Of a stretch of DNA of 64,000 nucleotides, positions 3,068 to 60,717 are shown one piece after another (position 1 is the stretch's first letter; each line of letters opens with the position of its first letter). Made by a program: the position numbers and the translations under genes. Source of the DNA: an uncultured Bacteroidota bacterium (GTDB lineage Bacteria > Bacteroidota > Ignavibacteria > UBA10030 > UBA8401). The DNA is taken from assembly GCA_937920105.1 (NCBI GenBank), contig CALETH010000028.1:19273-83272 (forward strand), given 5' to 3'. Under the pieces are notes generated by a model, which was given only the letters and a program-made list of their open reading frames with translations, was not told the origin of the DNA and did no database searches.

Positions 3068-3097
3068 AGATTCCCACTTAAAGCATGTGGGAATGAC
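3068..3097. repeat. GC-rich hairpin of the GATTCCC(R)C...G(Y)GGGAATGAC family
   Basis: Sequence gattcccac-ttaaagcat-gtgggaatgac. It is a variant of a motif that recurs in many intergenic regions of this window. Confidence 0.5.
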
Positions 3098-3112: not shown

Positions 3113-4552
3113 ATGGAAAACATTCGCGTACGCTTTGCACCAAGTCCCACAGGATACCTTCACGTTGGCGGATTACGCACCGCACTCTATAATTATCTTC
3201 TCGCAAAAAAACATCACGGAAAATTTCTTCTCCGCATCGAAGATACAGACCAATCCCGAAAAGTAGAAGGAGCAATGGAAAATCTCATTGAAACACTTCA
3301 ATGGGCAGGACTTGACTTTGATGAAGGACCAACAAAAGATGGAAATTTCGGACCGTACATTCAATCACAACGATTACCAATTTATCAACAACACGCACAC
3401 CAATTAGTAAAAGAAGAAAAAGCATATTATTGTTTTTGTTCTGCAGAACGATTAGAGCAAGTACGTCAAAAACAAATTGCAGCAAAAGTTCCACCTTCGT
3501 ATGATAGAAATTGTCGTTCAAAATCTTTAGAAGAAGCACAAAAAAAAATTGAACACGGCGAACGTTATGTAATCCGCATGAAAGTTCCACTTACTGGAGA
3601 ATTGGTTTTTGAAGATATGATTCGCGGAAAAGTTGCTATTGGTTATAAAATTTTAGATGACCAAGTCATTCTCAAATCTGATGGATTTCCAACCTACCAT
3701 CTTGCTGTTGTTGTGGATGACCATTTGATGAATATCAGTCACGTAATTCGCGGAGAAGAATGGCTACCCAGCACACCAAAACATATTTTGCTGTATCAAT
3801 ATTTTGGATGGGAAATTCCACAATTTGCACATCTTCCCCTTCTTCTCAATCCTGATAAAAGCAAATTGAGTAAACGACAAGGTGATGTTGCTGTGGAAGA
3901 TTATCGTGCAAAAGGTTTTTTGAAAGAAGCAATTATAAATTTTATTGCATTATTGGGTTGGAATCCCGGAGATAATAGAGAAATTTTTTCTTTAGAAGAA
4001 TTGGTGAAAGAATTTTCGATTGAACGCGTTGGAAAATCCGGAGCAATTTTTAATATAGAAAAATTACAATGGCTCAATCAACAACACATCCGCTTAAAAT
4101 CAGATGATGAATTATTAGCATTAGTGAAACCAAATATTCTTGAACAAGGTTGGAAAAATTTTTCTGATGATTATATAAAAAGTGTCATCAATTTGATGAA
4201 AGAACGTGTTACGGTTCTACCGGATTTTGTGAACGAATGCAAATTTTTTTACGAAGACCCAACGAGTTTTGATGAAAAAGGAAAATCCAAAAATTGGAGT
4301 GCGGAAACACCAAAGCATCTTGCACGATTTGTAGAAAAAATTTCTGAATTACAAAATTATACTGCATCAACAATCGAAGAAACACTTCGTACTACGGCAA
4401 CAGAATTTTCTTTAAGTGCGGGGAAACTTATTCATCCAATTCGCCTTGCTGTCTCGGGAATTTCTCTGGGACCGAGTTTGTTTCATCTGTTAGAAATTGT
4501 AGGAAAAGAAACTGTTGTAAGAAGAATTAATTTTGCGATTAAGAATTTATAA
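3113..4552 (+). CDS. gltX: Glutamyl-tRNA synthetase
   Basis: RVRFAPSPTGYLHVGG (HIGH motif) and KLSKRQ (KMSKS motif). 479 aa class I aaRS architecture. Confidence 0.95.
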   Translation: MENIRVRFAPSPTGYLHVGGLRTALYNYLLAKKHHGKFLLRIEDTDQSRKVEGAMENLIETLQWAGLDFDEGPTKDGNFGPYIQSQRLPIYQQHAHQLVKEEKAYYCFCSAERLEQVRQKQIAAKVPPSYDRNCRSKSLEEAQKKIEHGERYVIRMKVPLTGELVFEDMIRGKVAIGYKILDDQVILKSDGFPTYHLAVVVDDHLMNISHVIRGEEWLPSTPKHILLYQYFGWEIPQFAHLPLLLNPDKSKLSKRQGDVAVEDYRAKGFLKEAIINFIALLGWNPGDNREIFSLEELVKEFSIERVGKSGAIFNIEKLQWLNQQHIRLKSDDELLALVKPNILEQGWKNFSDDYIKSVINLMKERVTVLPDFVNECKFFYEDPTSFDEKGKSKNWSAETPKHLARFVEKISELQNYTASTIEETLRTTATEFSLSAGKLIHPIRLAVSGISLGPSLFHLLEIVGKETVVRRINFAIKNL

Positions 4553-4556
4553 GAAA

Positions 4557-4587
4557 GATTTGTCAAGTTTTTAAAACTTGACAAATC
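4557..4587. repeat. 31-bp AT-centred palindrome GATTTGTCAAGTTTTTAAAACTTGACAAATC
   Basis: Near-perfect palindrome immediately 3' of gltX. The same sequence occurs at 53035-53065, and close variants at 11545, 22698 and 60675. Confidence 0.7.
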
Positions 4588-4602
4588 TAAAAACTGATTA
4601 CT

Positions 4603-8773: not shown

Positions 8774-9517
8774 TTATTTTTGTGGATTGATTGAAGAATT
8801 TAATTCAACTATTTTTTTCCAACTAATTTCACCATTATCATTACAAAAATTATCAAAAAATTCTTTGGTAAATTTATTTATCATTTGAGAATATGACTGC
8901 AAAAAAATATCATTTTTTTCTTTTGCTTTATGTCCGAGTGGTTCAATAATATCTGTATAAAGATTTAAATCTCCAGAAATAAATTCCCAAAATTTTTGAC
9001 CGCAATACTTAAAGTATTCTCCTTTATCAACATTATTCTCTCTACCATAACAGCAACCATTAACTGCAACAACGATAAGTTTTGAATTACTTGTTCGTAA
9101 CGATTTCTTTGCTGTCGTAAAATCAGCAATCATTTTTTTAATTTGTTGTGCATTTCCCCAATTCGGTCCTGATTTTATAGTAACAATATATCGAATTCCA
9201 TCTTTATCAAATTCAAGGTCTATTCCTGATATTCCCGATTTCCAGCCATCATATATTTTTTGATTAATAAATATGGCAAGTCCTTCTAACCAATCACCAA
9301 ATATTGTTTCTTCACTTGAAGAAATATACGCATCAACAATTCCTTTAATAATTTGTTCTGATGTTAAAACATATTTTGCTTTAAATAAATAGGGATTTTT
9401 TTTCTTTAATACAGTTAAAAGTTTCAAACCATCTAAACTTTGTATTCTTTTCTTATGAAAGGTTTCTATATTTTCTTCAACGTATTGCGTAACGTCTTTG
9501 AGTTTTAACTTCTTCAT
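8774..9517 (-). CDS. Putative Type II restriction endonuclease (partner of the adjacent methyltransferase)
   Basis: Overlaps the 3' end of the methyltransferase gene by 41 bp on the same strand. No recognisable housekeeping family. Segment GIDLEFDKDGIRYIVTIKSG could be a PD-(D/E)xK-like core. The call rests mainly on context. Confidence 0.45.
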   Translation of the reverse strand: MKKLKLKDVTQYVEENIETFHKKRIQSLDGLKLLTVLKKKNPYLFKAKYVLTSEQIIKGIVDAYISSSEETIFGDWLEGLAIFINQKIYDGWKSGISGIDLEFDKDGIRYIVTIKSGPNWGNAQQIKKMIADFTTAKKSLRTSNSKLIVVAVNGCCYGRENNVDKGEYFKYCGQKFWEFISGDLNLYTDIIEPLGHKAKEKNDIFLQSYSQMINKFTKEFFDNFCNDNGEISWKKIVELNSSINPQK

Positions 9518-10358
9518 AAATAATTTTAGTTTCTTCTAATAAAGGCAACTCCTTATTTTGCAATTCATTTTTTACCATTTGATAATATTCAGGAACAACA
9601 TCTATACCAATAGAATGTCGTTGCATTCTATGAGCAACAAGTATTGTTGTACCTGAACCCATAAATGGGTCAAGAACAGTATCATATTTTTTAGTGAAAA
9701 GTTTGATGAACCATTCCGGTAATTCTTCAGGAAATGCAGCAGAGTGATTTTTATTATTACATTCTGTTGCAAGATGTAAAACATTTGTTGGATATGCTTT
9801 ATCTCTATGTAACCAATTAGAAATTTTTTTTCCGAAACCACTGCCAACTTTAGAAACATCTCTTACCTTATCTGTATTTGATAAATTTTTGAGACGTGTT
9901 TTTGACCACTCACCCATCGGAACCATTACTTCATCTTGATACATTGCAAAATGTTTGGATTTATTAAATTGTAATAAACGTTCCCACGCATCACGAAATC
10001 TGTTTGGCCATTTTCCTGGATAACTATTTTTTTTATGCCAAATAAATTCTTCTGTCCACAACCAACCTTGTTTTCTCATTTCCAAAATTAATTCCATTAC
10101 ATAAGTACTTCTTTCACCATTTACAACTTTTTCTTTAATATTAAGAATAAAAGTTCCAGTTGGTTTTAATACTCGTAAAAGTTCTGCAGAGATTGGTAAA
10201 AACCATTCAACATACTTTTCATGCGAAACACCTCCGTATGTATTTTTTCTTTGGTCTGCATACGGTGGAGATGTTACAATAAGGTCAACAGAATTTTCAG
10301 GAATTTTTTGAAGTTCCTTTGCACTATCACCCAGATATAAATTTGCTTTTATATTCAT
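9477..10358 (-). CDS. DNA methyltransferase, beta-class amino-MTase (N4-cytosine or N6-adenine)
   Basis: Motif IV TSPPY near the N-terminus and motif I DPFMGSGTT near the C-terminus (circularly permuted beta order). Has the HRDKAYPT pre-motif-I segment. Confidence 0.85.
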   Translation of the reverse strand: MNIKANLYLGDSAKELQKIPENSVDLIVTSPPYADQRKNTYGGVSHEKYVEWFLPISAELLRVLKPTGTFILNIKEKVVNGERSTYVMELILEMRKQGWLWTEEFIWHKKNSYPGKWPNRFRDAWERLLQFNKSKHFAMYQDEVMVPMGEWSKTRLKNLSNTDKVRDVSKVGSGFGKKISNWLHRDKAYPTNVLHLATECNNKNHSAAFPEELPEWFIKLFTKKYDTVLDPFMGSGTTILVAHRMQRHSIGIDVVPEYYQMVKNELQNKELPLLEETKIIYEEVKTQRRYAIR

Positions 10359-11446: not shown

Positions 11447-11544
11447 AAGAATGTTGTTCAATTTATGAAATTTAAAAACGTGTTGCAAACAAAGAAAAAT
11501 TGTATTTAGAAGATGAAATCCATAAATTTTACCTGCTAAAAACA

Positions 11545-11575
11545 GACTAGTCAAGTTTTTAAAACTTGACTAGTC
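11545..11575. repeat. 31-bp AT-centred palindrome GACTAGTCAAGTTTTTAAAACTTGACTAGTC
   Basis: Lies in the divergent rlmN/uvrA intergenic region. Same family as 4557 and 53035. Confidence 0.7.
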
Positions 11576-11596
11576 TCCCTCTAACGAAAAATAAAT

Positions 11597-22664: not shown

Positions 22665-22694
22665 GAGCGGATGCAAATCCGCTCTTTATTTTTT
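22665..22694 (+). terminator. Rho-independent terminator
   Basis: Sequence gagcggat-gcaa-atccgctc followed by tttatttttt. Confidence 0.75.
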
Positions 22695-22697
22695 AGA

Positions 22698-22728
22698 GAC
22701 TACAAAAGTTTTAAAAACTTTTGTAGTC
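22698..22728. repeat. 31-bp AT-centred palindrome GACTACAAAAGTTTTAAAAACTTTTGTAGTC
   Basis: Palindrome, variant of the 4557 family. It is followed by an AAACCCTGCCAG...CTGGCAGGGTTT hairpin at 22741-22787. Confidence 0.65.
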
Positions 22729-22883
22729 TTGGTAAAACAAAACCCTGCCAGATTTTAATTCGCCTGTGGCGAACTGGCAGGGTTTATTTTGTTTTTGTTT
22801 ACGAGATTCCTCACTACTCTCGGAATGACAATCATATAAATACAAAAATTCTCATCTACTCCACTACTCATCTACTCAATCAC

Positions 22884-24023
22884 TCACCTCAACAAATTTC
22901 TCGCAATAACAATGCGTTGAATTTCTGAAGTCCCTTCGTAAATTTCTGTAATTTTTGCATCACGCAAATATCTTTCTACATTATACTCACGAATGTATCC
23001 ATATCCACCATGAATTTGAATTGCTTCCAAAGCAGATTTCACTGCAGTTTTGGATGCGTATAATTTTGCCATCGCTGCTTGTTGAGAATAATTTTTTCCT
23101 GCATCTTTTAAAATTGCTGCTTGGTACACTAACATTCGTGACGCTTCTATTTCTGTTGCCATATCGGCAATTTTAAATTGTATTGCTTGAAGATGTGCAA
23201 TTGGTTGGTCAAACGCTTTTCGCTGTTTAGAATAATTTATGGAAGCATCCAAACATGCTTGAGCAATTCCAAGTGCTTGTGAACCAATACCAATGCGTCC
23301 ACCATCCAAAGTTTTCATTGCGAACTTAAAACCAAAACCCTCTTCTCCTATTCTATTGGCAACGGGAACTTTAACATCTTGAAATGCAAGCGAAACGGTA
23401 TCAGAACTTCGAATTCCTAATTTTTTTTCTTTCTTTCCAACAGAAAATCCGGGAAAATCTTTTTCTACAATAAATGCACTAATTCCGTGCGAACCTTTGG
23501 AAGCATCTGTTGTTGCCATCACTAACGCATAATCTGCATTCACACCATTAGTAATCCAATTTTTAATTCCGTTCAAAATATAATAATCACCATCTCGCAC
23601 TGCTGTAGTTCGTTGATTGGTTGCATCACTTCCTGCTTCTGGCTCAGAAAGTGCAAAAGCACCAAGTTTTTTTCCTGATGCTAACGGAACAAGATATTGT
23701 TGTTTTTGTTCTTCATTTCCAAATTGATTTATTCCATAACACACAAGTGAATTATTAACGGACATAACTACTCCGCAAGAAGCGTCAACACGAGAAATTT
23801 CTTCTACAGCAATTGCATAACTGAGCGTATCAAGTCCTGCACCACCATATTGTTCAGGAATCATCATTCCCATAAAACCAAGTTCGCCGAGTTTTTTTAC
23901 GGCTTCATGCGGAAACTCTTCTTTTTCATCTCGCACATCCGCAGTTGGTGCGAGTTCATCAACAGCAAATTGACGCGCTGTTTCTCGTATCATTTGTTGC
24001 GTTTCTGATAATTGAAATTGCAT
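22884..24023 (-). CDS. Acyl-CoA dehydrogenase (short-chain / butyryl-CoA type)
   Basis: 379 aa. MIPEQYGGAGLD...AFALSEPEAGSDA...YEGTSEIQ. Confidence 0.9.
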   Translation of the reverse strand: MQFQLSETQQMIRETARQFAVDELAPTADVRDEKEEFPHEAVKKLGELGFMGMMIPEQYGGAGLDTLSYAIAVEEISRVDASCGVVMSVNNSLVCYGINQFGNEEQKQQYLVPLASGKKLGAFALSEPEAGSDATNQRTTAVRDGDYYILNGIKNWITNGVNADYALVMATTDASKGSHGISAFIVEKDFPGFSVGKKEKKLGIRSSDTVSLAFQDVKVPVANRIGEEGFGFKFAMKTLDGGRIGIGSQALGIAQACLDASINYSKQRKAFDQPIAHLQAIQFKIADMATEIEASRMLVYQAAILKDAGKNYSQQAAMAKLYASKTAVKSALEAIQIHGGYGYIREYNVERYLRDAKITEIYEGTSEIQRIVIARNLLR

Positions 24024-24065: not shown

Positions 24066-24920
24066 CTATATTTTTTGTAATTGTTCTTTTGTCAATTCTT
24101 CTTTTCTCACTTCTCTATAATTATCTGGTTGATACATTACTTGAGCAAAATTTTTTGTAAGTAACTCTGTTTCAATAATTTTACCACTTTCAAATTTTAA
24201 TGTTTTATTTCGCCAGATTTCGTTTTTTCTATAAAAATTTTCTTCCACTTTTAAAAACTCATGTTCTTTTTCAAAAACATGATAATTATAGTCCAATTCT
24301 GTATTTATTCGCAAATCTCCATCCAAACATTTTTCTGATAACCAAAGATTTATTTGATATGTGTGAGAAGTATTATTAGTAAATTGATAATCAAGATAAT
24401 TGTAAAATATCGTTGCCCCACTTCCAAATGGAAGAACTCTTCCATCGTCAGGAAAAGGGTCAAAACTATAATGGTAACGTTCTACAACTGTTAAAGGACT
24501 ATGAATAACAAGCCAATGAAGTAAATTAGAAATCTGACACAAACCTCCACCAATTCCGGGCTTTGCTCTGCCAAAACTTAATTCCATTCCTAAAAGATAC
24601 CCTTTTCGTTTTGTCGGTAATCCAACCAATTTACAAAAAGAAAATGTTTCACCTGGCTTAATTAAAATTCCATTAATTTTTTCTATGGCAATTTTAAGAT
24701 TGGTAACTTTATTTATTTGTAATTGCATATCTGTTCCGCTCAATTTTCGCAAAAGAACAGATTGATGTTTTTTTATTCTATATGGTAATGATGTTTTTGA
24801 AAATTTTGTCGCATATCGCTTTTTTCCAAAATACCAATGGAGATAACGTCGAATTCTTTTTTCCCAAACAGAAATAAAATATAAAATTGGATGGTACTGA
24901 CTTAGTAATTTTTTCTGCAT
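24066..24920 (-). CDS. VanW-family protein
   Basis: GETFSFCKLVG...GYLLG...GGGLCQISNLL (VanW-like). Confidence 0.65.
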   Translation of the reverse strand: MQKKLLSQYHPILYFISVWEKRIRRYLHWYFGKKRYATKFSKTSLPYRIKKHQSVLLRKLSGTDMQLQINKVTNLKIAIEKINGILIKPGETFSFCKLVGLPTKRKGYLLGMELSFGRAKPGIGGGLCQISNLLHWLVIHSPLTVVERYHYSFDPFPDDGRVLPFGSGATIFYNYLDYQFTNNTSHTYQINLWLSEKCLDGDLRINTELDYNYHVFEKEHEFLKVEENFYRKNEIWRNKTLKFESGKIIETELLTKNFAQVMYQPDNYREVRKEELTKEQLQKI

Positions 24921-24929
24921 GGTATAAAA

Positions 24930-25778
24930 TTATTTGTATTCAAAAAACCCTTTTCCGGATTTTTTTCCTAAATATCCTGCAGCAACCATTTTTTTCAACA
25001 ATGGACATGGACGATATTTTGAATCTCCCAAACCATCATACAATACATTCATAATAGAAAGACATACATCTAAACCAATAAAATCCGCAAGGGTTAACGG
25101 ACCCATAGGATGATTCATTCCTAATTTCATTACCGTATCAATTGCTTCGGGAGTTGCAACGCCTTCCATCACACAATACATTGCTTCATTTAACATCGGC
25201 AACAAAATTCTGTTAGAAATAAATCCGGGATAATCATTTACTTCTACCGGAACTTTTTCTAATTTTTCTGAAAGTGTTTTTACGGTTTGATATGTTTCAT
25301 TGGAAGTTGCAAGTCCACGAATAACTTCTACCAATTTCATTATTGGTACGGGATTCATAAAGTGCATTCCAATTACTTTTTCGGGACGTTTTGTTACTGC
25401 GGCAATTTCTGTAATGGATATTGATGATGTGTTGGATGCTAAAATTGCATTCGCTGGAGCATTGGCATCTATCGTTTTAAAAATCTCCAGTTTAATATTT
25501 TTATTTTCTGTTGCGGCTTCTATAATAAGGTCTGCGTTTTTTACAGATTCGTTAAGATTTGTTTTGAGGGAAATTTTTTTAAGTGTATTTTCTTTTTGTT
25601 CGGCAGTAAGTGTTCCCTTTTTTACTTGTCGTTCTAAATTTGCAGAAATTGTGTTGAGTGCTTTTTCCAAAAATTCTTGTTTGATATCATTAAGAATGAC
25701 GTTGAAACCATATTGTGCAAAAACGTGAGCAATTCCGTTTCCCATTGTTCCTGCACCAATTACTGTAATGTTGTTCAT
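24930..25778 (-). CDS. hbd: 3-hydroxybutyryl-CoA dehydrogenase
   Basis: VIGAGTMGNGIAHVFAQ...HFMNPVPIMKLVEV. Confidence 0.9.
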   Translation of the reverse strand: MNNITVIGAGTMGNGIAHVFAQYGFNVILNDIKQEFLEKALNTISANLERQVKKGTLTAEQKENTLKKISLKTNLNESVKNADLIIEAATENKNIKLEIFKTIDANAPANAILASNTSSISITEIAAVTKRPEKVIGMHFMNPVPIMKLVEVIRGLATSNETYQTVKTLSEKLEKVPVEVNDYPGFISNRILLPMLNEAMYCVMEGVATPEAIDTVMKLGMNHPMGPLTLADFIGLDVCLSIMNVLYDGLGDSKYRPCPLLKKMVAAGYLGKKSGKGFFEYK

Positions 25779-25779
25779 A

Positions 25780-25808
25780 GAAATTCCTTATTGTGTTTTT
25801 AAGATTTT
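25780..25808. repeat. 29-bp direct repeat, copy 1 (second copy at 26295-26323)
   Basis: Both copies read gaaattccttattgtgtttttaagatttt. Copy 2 contains the last seven codons of the Fic gene (KILKTQ*). Confidence 0.85.
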
Positions 25809-25814
25809 TGTAAA

Positions 25815-26294
25815 TTACGATGGGATTTTTTGCATGTGTTTACCAATATTCCCAGTAGACCAATAATGTTCAAGTTCAAAAAAAAGTTTTAATAAATTGT
25901 CCACGACTTCTTTCGTTGAACATAATTTTGGCTTACCAAATAAACGCTGAAATAATGTATTATCTTGACGAAACCATTTTCGTGAAGAAAAACGTCCTTT
26001 ACGAGGTTGAAGATGTCCACTATCTGGTAACCAAGACGCAAAAATATTTTCGGGAGTCATAAATTTCGTACCAATCATTTCTCCATTGGAATTGCATGTA
26101 CCATAATTAATTCGAAATCTTGCCATACCATATTTATCCCATTGAATCTCAAAAATATGAACCTGTTGGTTAGCCCAACGTCGAAATACCCAAAAAAAAC
26201 GAGGTTCACGTAAGTCTACAATAAAACCACGTTCTTGAACTATAGGGAAAAAACATTGCTTAATCTCGTTTCGAAGCGGTGCAGTCTTAGCCAT
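25815..26294 (-). CDS. Hypothetical protein (159 aa)
   Basis: The ORF fills almost exactly the segment bracketed by the 29-bp direct repeats. No recognisable domain. Confidence 0.5.
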   Translation of the reverse strand: MAKTAPLRNEIKQCFFPIVQERGFIVDLREPRFFWVFRRWANQQVHIFEIQWDKYGMARFRINYGTCNSNGEMIGTKFMTPENIFASWLPDSGHLQPRKGRFSSRKWFRQDNTLFQRLFGKPKLCSTKEVVDNLLKLFFELEHYWSTGNIGKHMQKIPS

Positions 26295-26302
26295 GAAATT
26301 CC

Positions 26303-27388
26303 TTATTGTGTTTTTAAGATTTTCATAAGTTGATGATTGAGATAAAATTTTTCTTTCCCGACAATTTCACTTTTCAAAAAGCCCTTTTTTTCTAACGTTT
26401 GCAAATATGTTCCGGATGTTTTGATATTTCCTAATCCGGCTTTTTCAATAAATGTTCTTTTAGTATAAGGAAGCCGAAATAAAATTTCCAATAAATCTCG
26501 TGAATACATTTTTGGTAATTGCTTTTGAATTTTTTCTCCCATTGCTTGCATCAGATTTTCTATTTTAGCAATACGTTCTCTTCCGCTTTTTGCCGTTACT
26601 TCAATCATATCCAAAATATAAAACACCCAATCTTCCCACGCTTTTTTTTCTGTAACATTTTTTAATTTGAGATAATATTCATTTTTATTTTTTAAGATGT
26701 AACTGCTTAAATACAACGATGGAAGTTCCATCAATCCACAAAGTTGCAAATATAATAAAAGAATAATTCTTCCTGTTCTTCCATTACCATCAAAGAAGGG
26801 ATGGATTGCTTCAAATTGATAATGGATAAATGCTAATTTAATGAGTGGGTCAATTTCATCTTCAAGATGAATAAATTGTTCTAACGCTTTCAATTTTTCA
26901 CGGATAATGGTTTCACCATCTGGTGGCGTATAAATTACTTTTTGTGTTACAGGATTCTTTAATTGTGTTCCAGGGAAATTTCGTATTCCTGTTTGATTTT
27001 CTTTTATAATTCTCATCAAAGCAATAAAAAGATTTGTTGTGAGTAACGGTTTCTTTTGTATTTGCTCAACGCCATACCACAGTGCATCTTTGTAATGGAT
27101 TACTTCTTTTGTTGCAGGGTCTTCCGTTTGTTTATCAGTAATAGCAGATTTGAATAAATCATCTTGTGTGGTGATAATATTTTCAATTGCAGAACTTGCT
27201 TGTGCTTCTTGCAAGTTAATGGTATCTATAAAAAGTAATGGATTGGGTAAATTAGTGATTGCTCCTTTAAGTTCTGATAATGCCCTACTGGATGAAATAA
27301 GTTTTTTAAGAATGGCTTTTGTTTCTATATTAATTTTGGGTGGTAAATCTGGTAAAGCGTTGTAAGGTTTTAAAGGATTATAATTCAT
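26303..27388 (-). CDS. Fic-family protein (AMPylator type) with an N-terminal Fic_N inhibitory helix
   Basis: HPFFDGNGRTGRIILL Fic motif and an S-SAIEN [S/T]xxxE[G/N] inhibitory motif. Start set at MNYNPLKPYN (ATG 27388). The ORF-track N-terminal extension translates terminator hairpins. Confidence 0.85.
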   Translation of the reverse strand: MNYNPLKPYNALPDLPPKINIETKAILKKLISSSRALSELKGAITNLPNPLLFIDTINLQEAQASSAIENIITTQDDLFKSAITDKQTEDPATKEVIHYKDALWYGVEQIQKKPLLTTNLFIALMRIIKENQTGIRNFPGTQLKNPVTQKVIYTPPDGETIIREKLKALEQFIHLEDEIDPLIKLAFIHYQFEAIHPFFDGNGRTGRIILLLYLQLCGLMELPSLYLSSYILKNKNEYYLKLKNVTEKKAWEDWVFYILDMIEVTAKSGRERIAKIENLMQAMGEKIQKQLPKMYSRDLLEILFRLPYTKRTFIEKAGLGNIKTSGTYLQTLEKKGFLKSEIVGKEKFYLNHQLMKILKTQ

Positions 27389-27428
27389 ACAATATTTTTC
27401 TAAAAAATGCTGTTTTTTTGTATTTCCG

Positions 27429-27493
27429 AACGAGGGCAAAAAATCGCTTTTTTTGCCCTCGTTTAAAAAACGAGGGCGTTTGTTGCCCTCGTT
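27429..27493 (-). terminator. Two tandem hairpins sharing GCCCTCGTT arms; likely terminator of the aminotransferase gene
   Basis: First hairpin aacgagggc-aaaaaatcgcttttttt-gccctcgtt. Second hairpin aacgagggc-gtttgtt-gccctcgtt. Confidence 0.5.
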
Positions 27494-27508
27494 CAAAAAT
27501 AATATTAT

Positions 27509-28840
27509 TTACATATTTTTTAATATTTCGCTAATACTTTTTAATCCTTCACTCAATTCTTCTTTTTGAATAATCAATGGAGTTCTAAAGCGAATAGATT
27601 TTTCTCCACATCCTAAAAGAATAACTCCGCGTTCGTACATTGTTTTTCGAAATTCATTTCTGTGTTCTACAGTATCAAAATCCATTGCACACATTAAACC
27701 ACGTCCGCGTGGATTAGAAATGAGTTTAGGAAATTCTTGTGAAAGTGATTGAAGTTCTTGTAATAAAAACTCACCTTGAACTTTTGCATTTTCTACTAAT
27801 TGTTCTTCTTCAATGATTTCCATAATTTTTGTGAAGCGAACCATATCAACCAAATTTCCACCAAAGGTAGAATTTATTCTGCTTGCTTTATGAAAAACAT
27901 TTTCCGGAACATCATCTATTTTTTTGCTGCTCATAAAACCACAGATGTGTGTTTTCTTTCCAAAGGACATTAAATCCGGTTGCACAAAATATTCGTGTAC
28001 CCACATTTTTCCTGTTAAACCAATTCCCGTTTGCACTTCATCAAAAATTAAGAGAATTTCATTTTCATCGCAAAGTTGGCGAAGTTGCAATAAAAATTCT
28101 TTGCGAAAATGATTATCTCCACCTTCGGCTTGAATTGGTTCAATAATTAAGGCAGCAATATCATCTGGATTTTTTTTAATTGCTTCTTTAATTTGCTGAA
28201 TTGCTGTTTGTTCTTCTTTTTCTACTTTTTTTAAATTTTCTTCTGTAAAAGGAAATTGCATTGCGGGATTGTGAATTCTTGGCCATTGAAATTTCGGAAA
28301 ATAATTTGTCTTAACAGGGTCTGTATTAGTTAATGAAATTGTATAACCACTGCGTCCGTGAAAGGCCTGACGAAAATGAATAACTTGCATTCCCTTTTCT
28401 TCTTTATATCCTTTTGCAAAATTTTTTCGCACCTTCCAATCAAAAGCCGTTTTCATTGCATTTTCATTGGCTAATGCACCACCATCAACAAAAAAAACAT
28501 AAGGTAAATATTGCGGCTGAACTACACGAGCAAATGTTTCTGCAAATTCTGCCATTTCCACTGTATAGACATCAGAATTGGATGGTTTATTCACAGCAAC
28601 ATCAGCAAGTTTTTCTTTAAACTCTTTTGATGTGAGTTTTGGATGATTCATTCCTAATGCGGATGAACCAAAAAAAGAGAAAAAATCTAAAAACCATTTT
28701 TTATTTTTTGAATCGTAGAGACGGCAACCTTGACTTTTTTTCAAATCCAACACCATACCAAAACCATCTGCCAACATGTGTTTTGAAAGTGTAGTATGAA
28801 CTTCTTGAGGTTGAATTGTGATATGAGAGAACGTTTTCAT
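27509..28840 (-). CDS. Class III PLP-dependent aminotransferase (possibly L-lysine 6-aminotransferase-like)
   Basis: 443 aa with the general class III aminotransferase layout. The lysine assignment is a guess from the N-terminal similarity. Confidence 0.6.
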   Translation of the reverse strand: MKTFSHITIQPQEVHTTLSKHMLADGFGMVLDLKKSQGCRLYDSKNKKWFLDFFSFFGSSALGMNHPKLTSKEFKEKLADVAVNKPSNSDVYTVEMAEFAETFARVVQPQYLPYVFFVDGGALANENAMKTAFDWKVRKNFAKGYKEEKGMQVIHFRQAFHGRSGYTISLTNTDPVKTNYFPKFQWPRIHNPAMQFPFTEENLKKVEKEEQTAIQQIKEAIKKNPDDIAALIIEPIQAEGGDNHFRKEFLLQLRQLCDENEILLIFDEVQTGIGLTGKMWVHEYFVQPDLMSFGKKTHICGFMSSKKIDDVPENVFHKASRINSTFGGNLVDMVRFTKIMEIIEEEQLVENAKVQGEFLLQELQSLSQEFPKLISNPRGRGLMCAMDFDTVEHRNEFRKTMYERGVILLGCGEKSIRFRTPLIIQKEELSEGLKSISEILKNM

Positions 28841-31508: not shown

Positions 31509-32285
31509 TTATTGATTGTATCGTGAAAAATAATTATCTATTTCGGTTCGTAGTTCAATTCCAACTTTTTCAAAAATAGTAAGTAATTGTTGATATGTAC
31601 CTTCTCCACCAAGAAAATCCCAAAATTCGTTTGCTACTTTTAACTCATTTTCTAAATCCAACATTCCTCTCATTGTCCAACGATTATAGGGTTGCGGTTC
31701 ATACGGATTATACGGTATTGCGACAAGTGAATGAACTTTTGCTTTTGGCTCATTGGCAAGTGTTACAGCTACCCACTCTAAAAGAGTTCGTTTAAATTCT
31801 TTAAAACCGCCTGCATTGGGTTTTGCTGTTTTTATATCAAAAAGAAAAATTTGATTATTCTTATCTACTAATTTTATATCTACTTTTGTTGGTTTTACAG
31901 TAATCATTTTTCCTTTTCTACAAACATTTCTAATTTTTTCTATTTCTGAATTTTTATTTGGTGAGGTTTTTGCTGTCGTAAGTCCATCCATAATTTGTTG
32001 GATAACTTTTTGTGCTTCTTCACTTATTTCAGTTCCTGCTGTTGCTTGTGATGTTACTTCTTTAAAATTTGTTAATGCTAAGGCCACAGCGACTGGCTCA
32101 AAAATGCTTGTACCAAAATTTGTATTAAGAGAATGTATAAATGAAAACAACGCCATTCTATCTTTACCTAAAAGACGTGTATGAAATGGCATTGATGCTG
32201 GTTCTGGCTTATAGTTTTGAAATTTACGTCGTAAATTTTCTTTAAGAACAGTTTCTATTTGTTGAATTTGTAATTTTTCTAACAA
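31509..32285 (-). CDS. Putative Type II restriction endonuclease (PD-DxK)
   Basis: Overlaps the 3' end of the methyltransferase gene by 7 bp. KLVD-x9-DIK fits a PD-(D/E)xK core. Confidence 0.5.
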   Translation of the reverse strand: MLEKLQIQQIETVLKENLRRKFQNYKPEPASMPFHTRLLGKDRMALFSFIHSLNTNFGTSIFEPVAVALALTNFKEVTSQATAGTEISEEAQKVIQQIMDGLTTAKTSPNKNSEIEKIRNVCRKGKMITVKPTKVDIKLVDKNNQIFLFDIKTAKPNAGGFKEFKRTLLEWVAVTLANEPKAKVHSLVAIPYNPYEPQPYNRWTMRGMLDLENELKVANEFWDFLGGEGTYQQLLTIFEKVGIELRTEIDNYFSRYNQ

Positions 32286-33865
32286 GACTTTACTTCTTTC
32301 AAATGAAAAATTATTTCCGCATACGCTGTTTTATCTTTTTCTGTACGGTTTAATACGGGACGTTTAAATTGATTAACGATTTTCATTTCTGCTTTTTCTG
32401 CAATTATTGGATATAAGTTAAATTTATCATTAGAAACTAAAAATATATTATAATTTTCTTCTAAATATTGTTTGCAATTATTTAATACAGCGGAAATTCC
32501 ATCCACATATAAACGTTGTGCTTCTTTTGTTTGTTTTTTTGCAAGTGGTCCTATTTCCAATTCATCATTTCGCTCAAAACCAAATAAATCGTATGCGTAC
32601 GCATGTTGTTCATGATAATCAATTAATCCAACATACGGAGGCGAAGAAAAAATTCCTTGAATTTTCTTTTCTTTTACTATTGCAGCAAATGCTGGAAATA
32701 TTTTTTGCAGTTGTTTATAAATATCAATAGTACGAGAATCTCCTGTTAAACATATTTGATTGGTATTTGTTCGTAGTGAGGTAAATTCGCTTAATCGTTT
32801 TATGGTATCTTTGGAATATCGTTCCCACCAATCATACATAGAAAAAAGCGGTTTACAAATTTTTCCATGTTTTGCACAATAATAAGTACTGGTAATTGGT
32901 TCAATTAATGTTGCTAAATCAGCATGAGTTGTTGCCCTACAAGTTCTCACCGTTCTACTTAAAATAATACTTACTATTTTTTTAACTTGTGAATTTTTGA
33001 TGGATTTTACTAATTCAAAAACAAAATCGATTTCTTTTCTTACTGGATACAAGTACCATGTATCCAAAAAAGTTTTTTTGTTTTTTTGCTGTATTTGAAT
33101 AGAAAATTGTTTTACTAGTTTTTGAAATATGGGTTGGAATTTTTGAACTTTATCTTGTGTGTATTCCAATTCATTTATTTTTTTTTCTTTCAGCCAATGT
33201 TTATAATCGGGTGATGGAAAGTATGTGTTATTAAAGGTGGTGAGTTTTTCTAGAAGTGCTTCCTCAAATTGTCTGTTGGAATGACTTGCAATAAATTGTT
33301 GTAGTTTGGAAGAAATATTTTTTACTTCAATAAGTATATCTGATAAATTATAATGAGCAATTTTTGCATTGGAAATGTGTGTATTAAATGCAGAAACATC
33401 TATACCAATTGCATGAATTCCTAATTCATTGGCTTGCACTAAAGTTGTTCCACTTCCACAAAATGGGTCAAGAACAATATCTCCTGCTTGAAAATATTTT
33501 TCTTTTTTAAATTCATCTGTATGATTATCTAAAAAATATTCCACAAGTTGTGGAATAAATTTTCCTTTATAAGGATGTAATCGATGAACATGTTTTGTAG
33601 TTTCTGCTTCTTTTAAATAATCAAATGATAAATTCCAATTCAAATCATTGCCAAGTTGTTTTTTCCAATTTAATTCTCGTTTTCCGTAAAATGATTCATA
33701 GTATTTACGTAATTCATCTTTTTTAATCAAAGGATTTCCATTATTACCTACTTTTTTAATTTTTCCGTAATTAATCAAATAAGTAATATTAGACGTTGTT
33801 ACATTTTTGTTCAAATGTTCCGACGCCCAAATGCTTGCTTCTTTTATTGTTAAAAAATCGTTCAT
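32279..33865 (-). CDS. DNA methyltransferase (amino-MTase, alpha-like order) with an N-terminal HTH-like region
   Basis: Motif I VLDPFCGSGTT (~residue 130) preceded by HRLHPYKGKFIPQLVEYFL. Motif IV SSPPY lies near the C-terminus. Confidence 0.8.
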   Translation of the reverse strand: MNDFLTIKEASIWASEHLNKNVTTSNITYLINYGKIKKVGNNGNPLIKKDELRKYYESFYGKRELNWKKQLGNDLNWNLSFDYLKEAETTKHVHRLHPYKGKFIPQLVEYFLDNHTDEFKKEKYFQAGDIVLDPFCGSGTTLVQANELGIHAIGIDVSAFNTHISNAKIAHYNLSDILIEVKNISSKLQQFIASHSNRQFEEALLEKLTTFNNTYFPSPDYKHWLKEKKINELEYTQDKVQKFQPIFQKLVKQFSIQIQQKNKKTFLDTWYLYPVRKEIDFVFELVKSIKNSQVKKIVSIILSRTVRTCRATTHADLATLIEPITSTYYCAKHGKICKPLFSMYDWWERYSKDTIKRLSEFTSLRTNTNQICLTGDSRTIDIYKQLQKIFPAFAAIVKEKKIQGIFSSPPYVGLIDYHEQHAYAYDLFGFERNDELEIGPLAKKQTKEAQRLYVDGISAVLNNCKQYLEENYNIFLVSNDKFNLYPIIAEKAEMKIVNQFKRPVLNRTEKDKTAYAEIIFHLKEVKSC

Positions 33866-44862: not shown

Positions 44863-44887
44863 ATTTTTCATCCGTCCTTAGATAACT
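44863..44887 (-). terminator. Rho-independent terminator (minus strand) after the LRR gene
   Basis: On the minus strand: aaggacggat-gaaaa-atccgtcc followed by ttttttg. Confidence 0.65.
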
Positions 44888-45551
44888 CAAACCATGATAA
44901 TCTTTTCATCGTACCAATCATGGTTTACTTCACCAACACCATTTTCTTAATTTCACTAAATTTTCCCGCAGTCAGTCTGTAAAAATATATTCCACCGGAT
45001 AATTGACTTCCATCAAAATTCACTTCATACACTCCAACTTTCTTTTCTCCATTCACTAGTGTTGCGACTTCTTTCCCTAACATATCATACACTTTCAATG
45101 TTACATAACTACTTATTGGTAGTTGATAATTGATTAGTGTTGATGGGTTGAATGGGTTCGGATAGTTTTGAGATATACTATATTCTGTTGGTACAAAATT
45201 CTTTTCTGGATGAATTGATGTGGTGGGTAGAGTTCCAGTCCCATATGCTTTCAAGGTATCTAATCCTTTGGTGGTGTTACTGGTAAGGATGATTTGGGTG
45301 GAATCTTTTCCTAATCCATTTGGAGTGAACTTTATTGTTATATTACTTGTTTGAGTAAATGGAATGTTATATTGACTGCTTCCTACAACCATAAATTTTG
45401 AATTTGCAATATTGATTGTATTGATTTTCAAGGTATCTCCTCCCATACATTGTACGGCAAAGGACATATCTTTATTGCTGCCTATACCAACATTCCCAAA
45501 ATCTATTGTGGTAGATGAATAATTTGATGTGGGAGCAGAAAGAGTCGTAAA
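44884..45551. repeat. Approximately 668-bp segment apparently identical to 48911-49578
   Basis: Side-by-side reading shows no mismatch. It covers the 3' UTR hairpin AACCATGAT...ATCATGGTT plus the last ~200 codons of both LRR genes. Confidence 0.8.
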
Positions 45552-46556
45552 ATAGCTTGCTGAAGAATATGGACTATTTCCTTTTATATTTTGTGCACGC
45601 ACTCCCCAAGCATATGTTGTATTATACAATAACGGTCCTATTTGTTTGGATGTATCGGTAAGCGTGGTATCAAGAAGAATAGTAACATTATTTCTTACTA
45701 CATGAAGAAAATATTTATGGGCAGAGGAAACTTTTTTCCATGTTAGTGTGGGATACAATGATTGATTGGTCGCATTGTTTACTGGGCTTACTATAATCGG
45801 TGTTGTTGGTGATGGAAGAACTACATACATTGCTGACATATCTTTTATTATGGATATACCTGATGGTGGATTTACCAATACATAAATAGTAGTAAGATTA
45901 GCATTAGAAGAACAATTTAAATTTTGTAATGAGGTATTGGTACTAATATCTAATGTAGTCAGTTTAGTGGAAGAACAATATAAATTTTGTAATGCGGTAT
46001 TGGTACTCACATTTAAACTCGTCAGATTAGTGGAAGAACAATATAAATATAGTAATGCGGTGGCTCCACTCACATTTAATGTACTGAGATTAGCATTATT
46101 AGAACAATCTAAATATTCTAATGCGGTATTGGTACTCACGTTTAAACTCGTCAGATTAGTGGAAGAACAATCTAAAGTTTGTAATGCGGTGGCTCCACTC
46201 ACATTTAATGTGCTGAGATTAGCATTAGTAGAACAATCTAAATATTCTAATGCGGTATTGGTACTCACGTTTAATGTGCTGAGATTTGGATTATCAGAAC
46301 AATCTAAAGTTTGTAATGCGGTAAATTTTTCTATCCCTTGTAAATTGGTAATTTGAGAGCTGGATATCTCTATGATACGTACGGCACTGATATTTTGTAC
46401 TATTACCGTATCATTAGTACCTTGGGTTATAGCGTTAGCACTGTTAATAAGTGCAGTTCTAAAATTTTGGTCAGGCACCCATACTTTTGTTTGGGCAGTG
46501 GTTATTCCTACAACCAGTAAGAATAATGCAACGAGTTTGGTAAGTTGTGTTTGCAT
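44925..46556 (-). CDS. LRR + FN3-like surface protein with a T9SS C-terminal sorting domain (paralog A)
   Basis: Signal peptide. Units with period of about 22-23 aa (LDCS.N.NLSTLNVS.NTAL). C-terminus YPNPFNPSTLINYQLP...KVYDMLGKEVATLVN...YFYRLTAGKFSEIKKMVLVK. Confidence 0.8.
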   Translation of the reverse strand: MQTQLTKLVALFLLVVGITTAQTKVWVPDQNFRTALINSANAITQGTNDTVIVQNISAVRIIEISSSQITNLQGIEKFTALQTLDCSDNPNLSTLNVSTNTALEYLDCSTNANLSTLNVSGATALQTLDCSSTNLTSLNVSTNTALEYLDCSNNANLSTLNVSGATALLYLYCSSTNLTSLNVSTNTALQNLYCSSTKLTTLDISTNTSLQNLNCSSNANLTTIYVLVNPPSGISIIKDMSAMYVVLPSPTTPIIVSPVNNATNQSLYPTLTWKKVSSAHKYFLHVVRNNVTILLDTTLTDTSKQIGPLLYNTTYAWGVRAQNIKGNSPYSSASYFTTLSAPTSNYSSTTIDFGNVGIGSNKDMSFAVQCMGGDTLKINTINIANSKFMVVGSSQYNIPFTQTSNITIKFTPNGLGKDSTQIILTSNTTKGLDTLKAYGTGTLPTTSIHPEKNFVPTEYSISQNYPNPFNPSTLINYQLPISSYVTLKVYDMLGKEVATLVNGEKKVGVYEVNFDGSQLSGGIYFYRLTAGKFSEIKKMVLVK

Positions 46557-48908: not shown

Positions 48909-48951
48909 CCAACTCAAACCATGATAATCTTTTCATCGTACCAATCATGGT

Positions 48952-50715
48952 TTACTTCACCAACACCATTTTCTTAATTTCACTAAATTTTCCCGCAGTC
49001 AGTCTGTAAAAATATATTCCACCGGATAATTGACTTCCATCAAAATTCACTTCATACACTCCAACTTTCTTTTCTCCATTCACTAGTGTTGCGACTTCTT
49101 TCCCTAACATATCATACACTTTCAATGTTACATAACTACTTATTGGTAGTTGATAATTGATTAGTGTTGATGGGTTGAATGGGTTCGGATAGTTTTGAGA
49201 TATACTATATTCTGTTGGTACAAAATTCTTTTCTGGATGAATTGATGTGGTGGGTAGAGTTCCAGTCCCATATGCTTTCAAGGTATCTAATCCTTTGGTG
49301 GTGTTACTGGTAAGGATGATTTGGGTGGAATCTTTTCCTAATCCATTTGGAGTGAACTTTATTGTTATATTACTTGTTTGAGTAAATGGAATGTTATATT
49401 GACTGCTTCCTACAACCATAAATTTTGAATTTGCAATATTGATTGTATTGATTTTCAAGGTATCTCCTCCCATACATTGTACGGCAAAGGACATATCTTT
49501 ATTGCTGCCTATACCAACATTCCCAAAATCTATTGTGGTAGATGAATAATTTGATGTGGGAGCAGAAAGAGTCGTAAATTGATTTATCCTATAAGGACTG
49601 GTTCCCTTAACGTTTCTTGCTCGTACTTGCCATGTGTATATTGTATTATATAGTAACGGACCTATTTTTTTGGTGGTATCAACCAGTGTAGTATCTTTAA
49701 AAACTATAATATTGTTGTGTGATACTTCCAATTGATAGGTATGGGCAAAAGAAACTTTTCCCCATTTTAATGTTGGATATAATGATTGATTGGTCGCATT
49801 ATTTATTGGACTTAGTAAGATTGGCATTGCCGGAACTGGTGGAGTTACATAATTTGCTGACATATCTTTTACTTCTATTACACCTGGTGGTGGAAATGGA
49901 AGTATCCATACATATATAGTGGTAAGATTTGGATTTAACGAACAATCTACATCTGTTAATGCTGTATTTGCACTGATATCTAAAATACTAAGGTTATTAC
50001 CAAAACATTTTAAATATGTCAACGTTGTATTTCTATTTAAGTTCAATGTAGTTAGATTATTATTAACACAACTTAACGATATCAATGCTGTATTATTACT
50101 CACATCTAAGGTACTGATGTTATTATTAGAACAAGATAGTGTTTGTAATGCTGTATTTGTACTCACATCTAAGGTACTGATGTTATTATTAGAACAATAT
50201 AATGTTTGTAATGCTGTATTATTACTCACATCTAAGGTAGTAATATTCATAGAGGCACAATCTAAATGTGTTAATGCTGTATTTGCACTCACATCTAAAG
50301 TAGTGACCTTGTTGTTCGAACAATCTAAAACTTGTAATGCTGTATTATTACTTACATTTAGTATAGAAAGATTAGTGTTATAAAAACAGTTTAAATATGT
50401 TAATGCTAAATTGTTACTTACATCCAATGTGGTAAGTTGATTAAAAGCACAACTTAAATATTGTAATGCAGTAAATTTTTCTATTCCTTGTAAGTTAGTA
50501 ATTTGTTTATTATTAATAATTAAAGTATCAATCAAATTAATATTTGGCACTACTACAGTATCACTATTACCTTGAATAATATTATAAGTTGGAGAATGAT
50601 TAATAAGCGCTTTTCTAAAACTTGTATCAGGTACACATACTTTTGTTTGGGCAGTTATCTCTACAATAAATAATAATAATGCCACAAGGGTAAGTTTGGT
50701 TTTTATCATAATCAC
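48952..50715 (-). CDS. LRR + FN3-like surface protein with a T9SS C-terminal sorting domain (paralog B)
   Basis: Same architecture as 44925-46556. The last ~200 aa are identical. The N-terminal LRR region has diverged. Confidence 0.8.
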   Translation of the reverse strand: MIMIKTKLTLVALLLFIVEITAQTKVCVPDTSFRKALINHSPTYNIIQGNSDTVVVPNINLIDTLIINNKQITNLQGIEKFTALQYLSCAFNQLTTLDVSNNLALTYLNCFYNTNLSILNVSNNTALQVLDCSNNKVTTLDVSANTALTHLDCASMNITTLDVSNNTALQTLYCSNNNISTLDVSTNTALQTLSCSNNNISTLDVSNNTALISLSCVNNNLTTLNLNRNTTLTYLKCFGNNLSILDISANTALTDVDCSLNPNLTTIYVWILPFPPPGVIEVKDMSANYVTPPVPAMPILLSPINNATNQSLYPTLKWGKVSFAHTYQLEVSHNNIIVFKDTTLVDTTKKIGPLLYNTIYTWQVRARNVKGTSPYRINQFTTLSAPTSNYSSTTIDFGNVGIGSNKDMSFAVQCMGGDTLKINTINIANSKFMVVGSSQYNIPFTQTSNITIKFTPNGLGKDSTQIILTSNTTKGLDTLKAYGTGTLPTTSIHPEKNFVPTEYSISQNYPNPFNPSTLINYQLPISSYVTLKVYDMLGKEVATLVNGEKKVGVYEVNFDGSQLSGGIYFYRLTAGKFSEIKKMVLVK

Positions 50716-53024: not shown

Positions 53025-53034
53025 TATTTTTTTA

Positions 53035-53065
53035 GATTTGTCAAGTTTTTAAAACTTGACAAATC
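53035..53065. repeat. 31-bp AT-centred palindrome GATTTGTCAAGTTTTTAAAACTTGACAAATC
   Basis: Identical to the copy at 4557-4587. Lies inside the segment bracketed by the duplicated ogt 3' end. Confidence 0.7.
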
Positions 53066-53291
53066 TCTTCTCACAAAAAATATTTCCCATCCCATACTAA
53101 AACTATCAAAAAGTTTTCTTATTTTAGTTCTGCAAAAATAATTTCTTCCTTCCTAATTTTTTCAGAATGAATTTCTTCTTCGTTTAGAAGGTGCAATTAT
53201 TTTGCAATATGTTGAATTTCCGTAACCCTGCCAGAGTTTTAAACTCTGACAGGGTTTAGTTAAAAATAATTTCCTTCCTAATTTTTTTAGA

Positions 53292-60642: not shown

Positions 60643-60674
60643 AGTTTTTCCTTTTATATATGTTAGTGTTTAAA

Positions 60675-60705
60675 GATTACAAAAGTTTTAAAAACTTTTG
60701 TAATC
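60675..60705. repeat. 31-bp AT-centred palindrome GATTACAAAAGTTTTAAAAACTTTTGTAATC
   Basis: Same family as the 22698 element. Confidence 0.65.
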
Positions 60706-60717
60706 TACAAAAATATT

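Follow-up and report, generated by a model that had tools for sequence, protein, structure and literature searches.

A 64-kb stretch of DNA from an uncultivated bacterium (contig CALETH010000028.1, referred to here as the window) carries a single small gene of 159 codons, ORF159, wedged between a predicted SoFic-type Fic gene and hbd, the gene for a 3-hydroxybutyryl-CoA dehydrogenase, and enclosed by two perfect 29-bp direct repeats. Our results show that this locus is a genuine strain-level insertion/deletion polymorphism, with an empty and an occupied allele in otherwise nearly identical DNA. The occupied form must have arisen by an insertion that duplicated the end of Fic, whether the empty allele is ancestral or is itself the product of a secondary deletion. 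On balance, the explanation that we favour is a one-off event of host replication or recombination, which inserted 486 bp with a 29-bp target duplication and involved no dedicated mobile element. The locus shows, with rare clarity, the states before and after one gene was gained or lost; both junctions are defined to the base and mobile-element genes are absent.

Empty and occupied alleles of the Fic-hbd junction

The repeat (GAAATTCCTTATTGTGTTTTTAAGATTTT) is present in the window as two exact copies (29/29 identity), R1 in front of ORF159 and R2 in front of hbd (Table 1). Allowing up to 3 mismatches leaves the count at two; 0 of 100 shuffles contained a match, and chance would be expected to produce none. 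A repeat search lengthens the pair to 34/37 identity, with the 8 added nucleotides (5/8 matches) at chance level. On the minus strand, R1 (26323..26295) reads AAA ATC TTA AAA ACA CAA TAA followed by GGAATTTC, that is, the last six codons and the stop codon of Fic (KILKTQ and stop) and an 8-nt spacer carrying a Shine-Dalgarno-like AAGGA, and the ATG of ORF159 abuts it directly. The stop codon of ORF159 is followed by TTTACA and R2 (25808..25780), then by a single T (25779) and the ATG of hbd (25778), which gives hbd a spacer of 9 nt and makes the unoccupied allele Fic-9 nt-hbd. The unique insert (25809-26294) measures 486 bp, of which 480 nt are the open reading frame (ORF) including its stop codon and 6 nt are the tail behind it, and the starts of the two repeat copies lie 515 bp apart. 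An original prediction, made from the window sequence, had described one ORF bracketed by such repeats between Fic and hbd, and had asked for further copies to be searched; the arrangement was borne out, and the window holds these two copies only. It had also set the repeat directly before both start codons, which holds for ORF159 and misses hbd by the extra T, and its view that both genes retain the same leader and ribosome-binding context agrees with the AAGGA leader that ORF159 and hbd have in common.

The C-terminus of Fic (...LYLN-x-x-LM-x-ILK-x-x) is conserved across the ~120 closest relatives listed, which are 71-79% identical to it and nearly all 360-362 aa long. Because of this conservation, KILKTQ and its stop are native to Fic and R2 is the derived copy, in agreement with the proposal that the repeat copies the 3' end of Fic.

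Exact-protein look-ups of hbd returned two independent assemblies, L001 (ENA ERZ650243, SPAdes NODE_7287, 4158 nt, 3x coverage) and L002 (Logan assembly of SRR6231173, k=31). The VanW-like protein encoded after hbd found these two only, and look-ups of ORF159, Fic and the aminotransferase encoded upstream of Fic found no match. Across 1026 nt of Fic, L001 matches the window at 100% identity; in the ~3.07 kb that run from the repeat through hbd, the VanW-like gene and the acyl-CoA dehydrogenase gene, it has 1 mismatch. Its junction reads ...CATCAACTTATG + 29-mer + T + ATGAAC..., with a single copy of the repeat and no ORF159. L002 opens with ACA + 29-mer + T + ATG of hbd, as the occupied allele does at its right-hand junction. 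A Fic-hbd junction without the small gene had been predicted, and comparison of related loci for its presence or absence had been proposed; since L001 carries precisely this empty site, the insertion reading is directly supported, and since the empty L001 and the occupied junction of L002 come from separate assemblies, both alleles exist in sequence data.

L001 departs from the window at its two ends. Its nucleotides 1-83 replace Fic codons 1-23 (window equivalent 27321-27388) with the reading frame remaining open, and they had no match among the sequences compared; its last 10 nt (4149-4158; window equivalent beyond 22751) diverge inside a terminator hairpin. These divergent ends may mark another structural difference between the strains, or else the contig, at 3x coverage, is of poor quality at its ends.

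ORF159 and its family

The inserted protein had been thought to have no recognisable family. A word-based search with ORF159 did return nothing but itself, but a HMMER scan of 1.84 billion representatives recovered 155 relatives at E<=1e-3, 5 of them at E<=1e-30, mostly full-length proteins of 150-175 aa with a best identity of 47-50%. Their alignment contains the motifs FRR, IQWDKYGxPRF, WFRQD and GPH, and ORF159 retains almost all of the near-invariant residues (L7, R8, G23, F24, W52, K54, F60, L95, W107, F108, E140 and G151 in its own numbering). No match to ORF159 itself was found in Pfam (at E<=0.01 or E<=1), NCBIfam or PADLOC, and its sole match in PHROGs was non-significant (E = 0.053). 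Among the aligned family members, however, 25 of 42 weakly match the Pfam family DUF4304 (PF14137; best 8.5e-07), and UniRef gives the name DUF4304 to one homologue. Judged from these relatives, ORF159 is a distant DUF4304-like protein, related at the superfamily level, and not an orphan. It shares with DUF4304 the size of ~160 aa, the bacterial origin and the weak model matches among its relatives, but it is unmatched by the model even at E<=1 and belongs to a distant branch with motifs of its own (IQWDKYGxPRF, WFRQD).

Structure prediction had been recommended for this protein, and an AlphaFold2 model built on the family alignment was obtained with high confidence (predicted local distance difference test, pLDDT, 93.7; predicted template modelling score, pTM, 0.87). 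It combines an antiparallel sheet with two helices at the N-terminus and a long one at the C-terminus, from which we infer a small alpha+beta module of binding or chaperone-like shape; its fold matches are weak and generic.

The G+C content of ORF159 is 0.35 and that of its third codon positions (GC3) 0.225, compared with a GC3 of 0.22 +/- 0.05 for the genes of the window, and a foreign composition is thereby ruled out. The relatives with a named source are all from Proteobacteria (Pseudoduganella, Variovorax, Microbulbifer). Since ORF159 is an intact family member with host-like GC3, its sequence places its origin in this lineage or in a compositionally similar one. The copy has thus long been resident in a low-GC lineage, and probably moved from within the genome or from a close relative.

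Origin of the insert

Several kinds of mobile element were considered. No integrase, recombinase or transposase match was obtained when every ORF of at least 120 aa in the window was scanned with Pfam, and terminal inverted repeats are absent, the ends of the insert (ATGGCTAAG... and ...TAATTTACA) not being inverted repeats of each other. Without transposase or terminal inverted repeats, and with a duplication of 29 nt, the insert is unlike an insertion sequence or transposon, as had been argued from the start. The suggestion of a cassette-type or site-specific gain fared less well, as neither att- or attC-like structure nor recurrence was found. Like integron cassettes, the insert is a single promoter-less ORF with tight boundaries, oriented with the upstream promoter. 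However, attC is an imperfect palindrome of 57-141 nt at the cassette 3' end, and here just 35 nt (TTTACA and the 29-mer) separate the ORF159 stop codon from the T before the hbd ATG. No attC-like or HUH hairpin was found in or around the repeat, whose DNA folds no better than shuffles (z 0.75), and integron cassettes have only a 7-nt core in common, as against the 29-nt perfect repeat at this locus. With no attC-like imperfect palindrome, IntI or attI, and no integron integrase match in the window, the insert does not qualify as an integron gene cassette.

Xer-dependent modules (IMEX, pdif) resemble the insert in their small cargo, the lack of a recombinase of their own and sites of ~28-29 nt (28-nt dif-like sites). 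Inspection of the 29-mer revealed no ATAA-N6-TTAT core and an identity to Escherichia coli dif at chance level, and its best dyad (7/10 with an 8-nt spacer) is what chance gives in AT-rich sequence. The repeat also overlaps a coding 3' end, and it is direct, whereas the sites of pdif modules are inverted. Lacking two 11-nt dyad arms or a dif-like consensus, the locus is not a Xer/dif-type module as far as inspection can tell.

The hallmark of integrations into tRNA genes or icd is a perfect direct repeat that takes in the 3' end of the gene targeted. The elements that integrate in this way (phages and islands in tRNA or tmRNA genes, phage 21 and e14 in icd) share with our locus a repeat made of the target 3' end, an intact target gene, and empty and occupied forms that differ by one repeat copy plus the insert. 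The direct repeats do contain the 3' end of Fic, but the unit is only 0.5 kb long with one cargo ORF, its target is the end of a protein gene together with an intergenic spacer, no integrase was found in it or in the surrounding 64 kb, and the arrangement does not recur. A repeat of at least 15 nt of the gene's own 3' end was found downstream of Fic in 0 of 76 related loci, so that recurrent attachment at the 3' end of Fic is ruled out, and no conserved sequence follows the stop codons of these genes. Mobility intrinsic to the ORF159 family is likewise ruled out, its homologues having no flanking repeats in the four loci compared and the family being absent from plasmid, phage and viral collections.

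A single host-mediated event is favoured because none of these results indicates a dedicated mobile element, and it seems to be singular because no equivalent duplication was seen after the 76 related Fic genes or around the four ORF159 homologues. In such an event, 486 bp of DNA, essentially one complete DUF4304-like gene, would have entered the Fic-hbd junction, and 29 bp of the target (the Fic 3' end and the AAGGA spacer) would have been duplicated during entry. One possible route consists of two template switches during replication: a nascent or invading donor strand would leave the junction after ...AAGGAATTTC, copy ORF159 from an ectopic template and return 29 nt upstream of its departure point. 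Other genes of the window are preceded by AAGGA-type leaders that resemble the end of the repeat, which makes microhomology beside a start codon plausible, and these leaders could have placed the left joint at the start codon. Homology-facilitated illegitimate recombination, anchored by homology at the Fic end, could lead to the same product if the return join fell 29 nt too early. In a third route, the chromosomal 29-mer would undergo one crossover with a 515-bp circle bearing the same 29-mer, which would cover spread and reversibility, but not the first origin. Through duplication of the leader, Fic keeps its C-terminus and ORF159 and hbd each receive the same leader, and selection would favour the survival of exactly such an event. 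Recombination between the two perfect repeats can now remove the insert, or restore it, precisely, and this reversibility is in keeping with the occurrence of both alleles in genomes that are nearly identical.

The event resembles the indels produced by slippage, template switching or illegitimate recombination in that it has no mobility genes, is one-off, duplicates the target at the joint and can be reversed through its repeats; it differs from them in comprising a complete gene with almost no flanking sequence, and in that the donor was not found. Some of our observations weigh against a one-off host-mediated insertion. As no donor copy of ORF159 was found (its best relatives are only 47-50% identical), the template-switch and illegitimate models cannot be checked at donor junctions. 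The insert extends from exactly the ATG to 6 nt past the stop codon, which is tidier than most illegitimate events and cassette-like. The locus is covered by three assemblies in all, and L001, at 3x coverage, differs from the window in its first 83 nt and its last 10 nt. The event is a variant of the known repeat-flanked insertions and deletions, unusually tidy, transposase-less and standing alone, and not a new kind of element. If similar cases appear, they would point to a route of gene gain that annotation misses, one that acts via short duplicated leaders instead of transposases. An ORF at 1125-2177 of the window encodes a domain of ATP-dependent DNA ligases and matches WGR weakly, and end-joining could bear on illegitimate insertion; a Ku-like gene was not seen in the window.

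It is possible, though clearly less probable, that the occupied allele is the older state and that L001 arose by a secondary deletion between the 29-mers, in which case the polymorphism records gene loss and not recent gain, with an earlier duplication still needed. Precise deletion proceeds readily between direct repeats of this length at a distance of 486 bp, its product would be exactly the L001 junction, and the full adaptation of ORF159 to host composition speaks against a very recent foreign arrival. However, the repeats are still 29/29 identical, and 1 substitution in ~4 kb between the genomes makes a change in either direction recent. The original prediction had taken Fic-8 bp-hbd as ancestral; an empty junction does exist in L001, but its spacer is 9 nt and its polarity is not readable from two alleles.

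We consider it unlikely that the 515-bp unit is a minimal mobile cassette, with the 29-mer as the attachment site of a recombinase encoded elsewhere and a circle that restores the Fic C-terminus as it integrates. The inclusion of the target 3' end in a perfect direct repeat would fit such a cassette, as would the existence of both alleles and a unit made of one promoter-less ORF in the orientation of its neighbours, and a weak dyad (7/10, 8-nt spacer) can be drawn by eye inside the repeat. This dyad is at chance level and the fold no better than that of shuffles, as described above; no recombinase was found in 64 kb, and no second example was seen after the 76 related Fic genes. The 29-mer had no match in JGI metagenome contigs or viral contigs, and the family's absence from plasmid, phage and viral collections and its homologues' lack of flanking repeats also argue against a cassette.

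The position of ORF159 directly behind Fic had raised the possibility of a Fic-associated partner. By its domains, Fic is a predicted class-II SoFic-type AMPylase. All three of its Pfam domains (Fic_N, Fic and SoFic-like_C) score above their cut-offs and it matches the PADLOC SoFic model at 1.9e-107; since its 414 bits against the NCBIfam model ProtAdlyltaseSoFic fall under the cut-off of 550, it is placed as a family member and not as an equivalog of the Shewanella enzyme. The catalytic motif HxFx(D/E)GNGRxxR is present (HPFFDGNGRTGR at residue 196), and the inhibitory helix motif (S/T)xxxE(G/N) occurs in the same polypeptide (SSAIEN at residue 65), which defines class II (PMC3667792, PMC12249575). 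Relatives that are ~78% identical have the same length and share its start Met.

That ORF159 is an acquired antagonist or modulator of this SoFic-type toxin, with its position maintained by selection, seems to us doubtful. There is a precedent, as the 47-aa gene AS1, downstream of SoFic in E. coli, is reported to neutralise SoFic toxicity (2025, PMC12249575) and is, like ORF159, a small gene on the same strand immediately after a SoFic-type gene; moreover, L001, which lacks ORF159, also has the first 23 codons of Fic replaced by 83 nt. However, AS1 is unrelated in size to the 159-aa DUF4304-like ORF159, whose fold matches are weak and generic, and Fic already has an inhibitory helix motif of its own. 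The two families do not co-occur elsewhere. None of the 6 distinct loci of ORF159 homologues (eight contigs; L003-L008, L169) has Fic beside the gene, the neighbours being DUF1203, glyoxalase-type and other small genes, and a profile hidden Markov model of the ORF159 family found no member within ~5 kb of 80 Fic-relative loci, which as a whole have no conserved ORF downstream of Fic. On these comparisons ORF159 is not a general partner of Fic; the absence of co-occurrence in either direction weakens a partnership, to which the AS1 precedent still leaves a low probability. Among the 67 Fic loci examined for this, the sole sizeable conserved downstream neighbour is a 408-aa ORF that begins 13 nt past the Fic stop codon in four marine loci (L121, L134, L136, L137).

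Still less credence can be given to a combination of these ideas, in which the 515-bp unit would be a working cassette (the ORF and a 29-bp target-end site), moved in trans by a recombinase or by short homology, that delivers a SoFic antagonist or modulator; if true, it would be a new, integrase-less way to plug regulators behind a defence gene.

Least probable of all is an assembly artefact, in which a de Bruijn assembler made the ORF159 loop of the window, or its absence from L001, at the 29-nt repeat: every source is a metagenome assembly, L001 has 3x coverage and odd ends, and the repeat length equals one of the default k values of MEGAHIT, but a graph loop would still require real reads linking the 29-mer to both ends of ORF159, which has host composition, and an artefact is unlikely because the k=31 assembly L002 holds A + 29-mer + T, which exceeds the repeat in length and is diagnostic of the right junction of the occupied form, and because the L001 junction, from SPAdes with k>=33 and so above the repeat length, lies ~1.1 kb from the 5' end of its contig in surroundings otherwise identical to the window.

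Operon context and other features of the window

The genes around the insert lie on the minus strand in the order aminotransferase, Fic, ORF159, hbd, VanW-like gene and acyl-CoA dehydrogenase gene (Table 1).

Table 1. Positions of the genes, repeat copies and associated features at the Fic-hbd locus of the window
Feature	Position	Strand	Remarks
Class-III aminotransferase	28840..27509	-	
Fic upstream region, four AACGAGGGC motifs in nested inverted repeats	27389..27508	-	RNA fold z = -8.2
Fic gene (predicted class-II SoFic-type AMPylase), 361 aa	26303..27388	-	Pfam Fic_N + Fic + SoFic-like_C
Repeat copy R1: six last Fic codons, stop, 8-nt AAGGA spacer	26295..26323	-	LMKILKTQ C-terminus fits family consensus
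ORF159, intact gene, divergent DUF4304-like protein of ~160 aa	25815..26294	-	HMMER family and AlphaFold2 model
6-nt tail (TTTACA on minus strand) from ORF159 stop to R2; last bases of unique insert	25809..25814	-	
Repeat copy R2: non-coding duplicate of Fic 3' end, acts as hbd leader	25780..25808	-	
hbd (3-hydroxybutyryl-CoA dehydrogenase)	24930..25778	-	Pfam 3HCDH_N/3HCDH; NCBIfam PRK05808 462 bits, above cut-off
VanW-like gene	24066-24920	-	9-nt spacer after hbd
Acyl-CoA dehydrogenase	22884-24023	-	42-nt spacer after VanW-like gene

The intergenic gaps between Fic and the acyl-CoA dehydrogenase gene are all free of terminator-like sites on the minus strand, and Fic, ORF159, hbd, the VanW-like gene and the acyl-CoA dehydrogenase gene are therefore likely to be co-transcribed from a predicted Fic promoter. 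The region upstream of Fic (27389-27508) likely serves as operator or leader for the unit into which ORF159 was inserted. Upstream of many SoFic-type relatives (L089-L168), CGAGGG/CCCTCG motifs occur at fixed offsets (about -107, -77, -37 and -52, -22), while both motif orientations were found in 0 of 139 random stretches from the same Fic-relative loci. This conserved upstream repeat is probably an operator or leader, and the putative winged helix at the Fic C-terminus may possibly bind it.

The closest relatives of hbd, in metagenome-assembled genomes of Ignavibacteria and Bacteroidota, are 69-81% identical to it (best 81%). Their loci have the order thiolase-hbd-acyl-CoA dehydrogenase, with the thiolase gene upstream in the three that were checked, and contain neither Fic, ORF159 nor the VanW-like gene. 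Their hbd leaders are unrelated to the 29-mer, and the loci are too distant to inform on it. In 10 of the 10 closest relatives, hbd and the acyl-CoA dehydrogenase gene adjoin, whereas here the VanW-like gene intervenes; since this gene splits the pair, the hbd operon has taken up several unrelated genes in this lineage. The loss of thiolase, the presence of Fic and the variability of ORF159 indicate that the 5' flank of hbd has been rebuilt more than once in the lineage. Already as a single case, the locus thus presents the region upstream of hbd as a rearrangement hotspot in this lineage, places ORF159 in an unannotated DUF4304-like family and draws attention to SoFic-type genes with a conserved upstream repeat element.

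The rest of the window is ordinary chromosome and includes two type II restriction-modification systems, at 8774-10358 and 31509-33865; one pairs an EcoO109I-type endonuclease with an N6/N4 methylase, the other a TdeIII-type endonuclease with a methylase. With these two systems and the SoFic-type gene, the stretch is rich in defence genes, which do not form one island. A 300-nt repeat, 100% identical between 44884-45183 and 48911-49210, lies in two paralogous secreted proteins with leucine-rich repeats, an Ig-like domain and a Por secretion tail, which suggests recent gene conversion or duplication of these surface-protein paralogues. Long leucine-rich-repeat arrays with units of 63 nt (21 aa) are found at 45909-46295, 49939-50382 and 55777-56921, and a third gene also has them. 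A 33-nt perfect palindrome (AGATTTGTCAAGTTTTTAAAACTTGACAAATCT) occurs between genes at 4556-4588, 11544-11576, 53034-53066 and 60674-60706, and also at 22686-22729; two of the copies are identical and the others 73-89% identical, and the family looks like a repetitive extragenic palindrome (REP)-like or terminator-type intergenic repeat. A second repeat family (GATTCCCGCnnAAGCnTGCGGGAATGAC) is present at 3069, 58281 and 62865.

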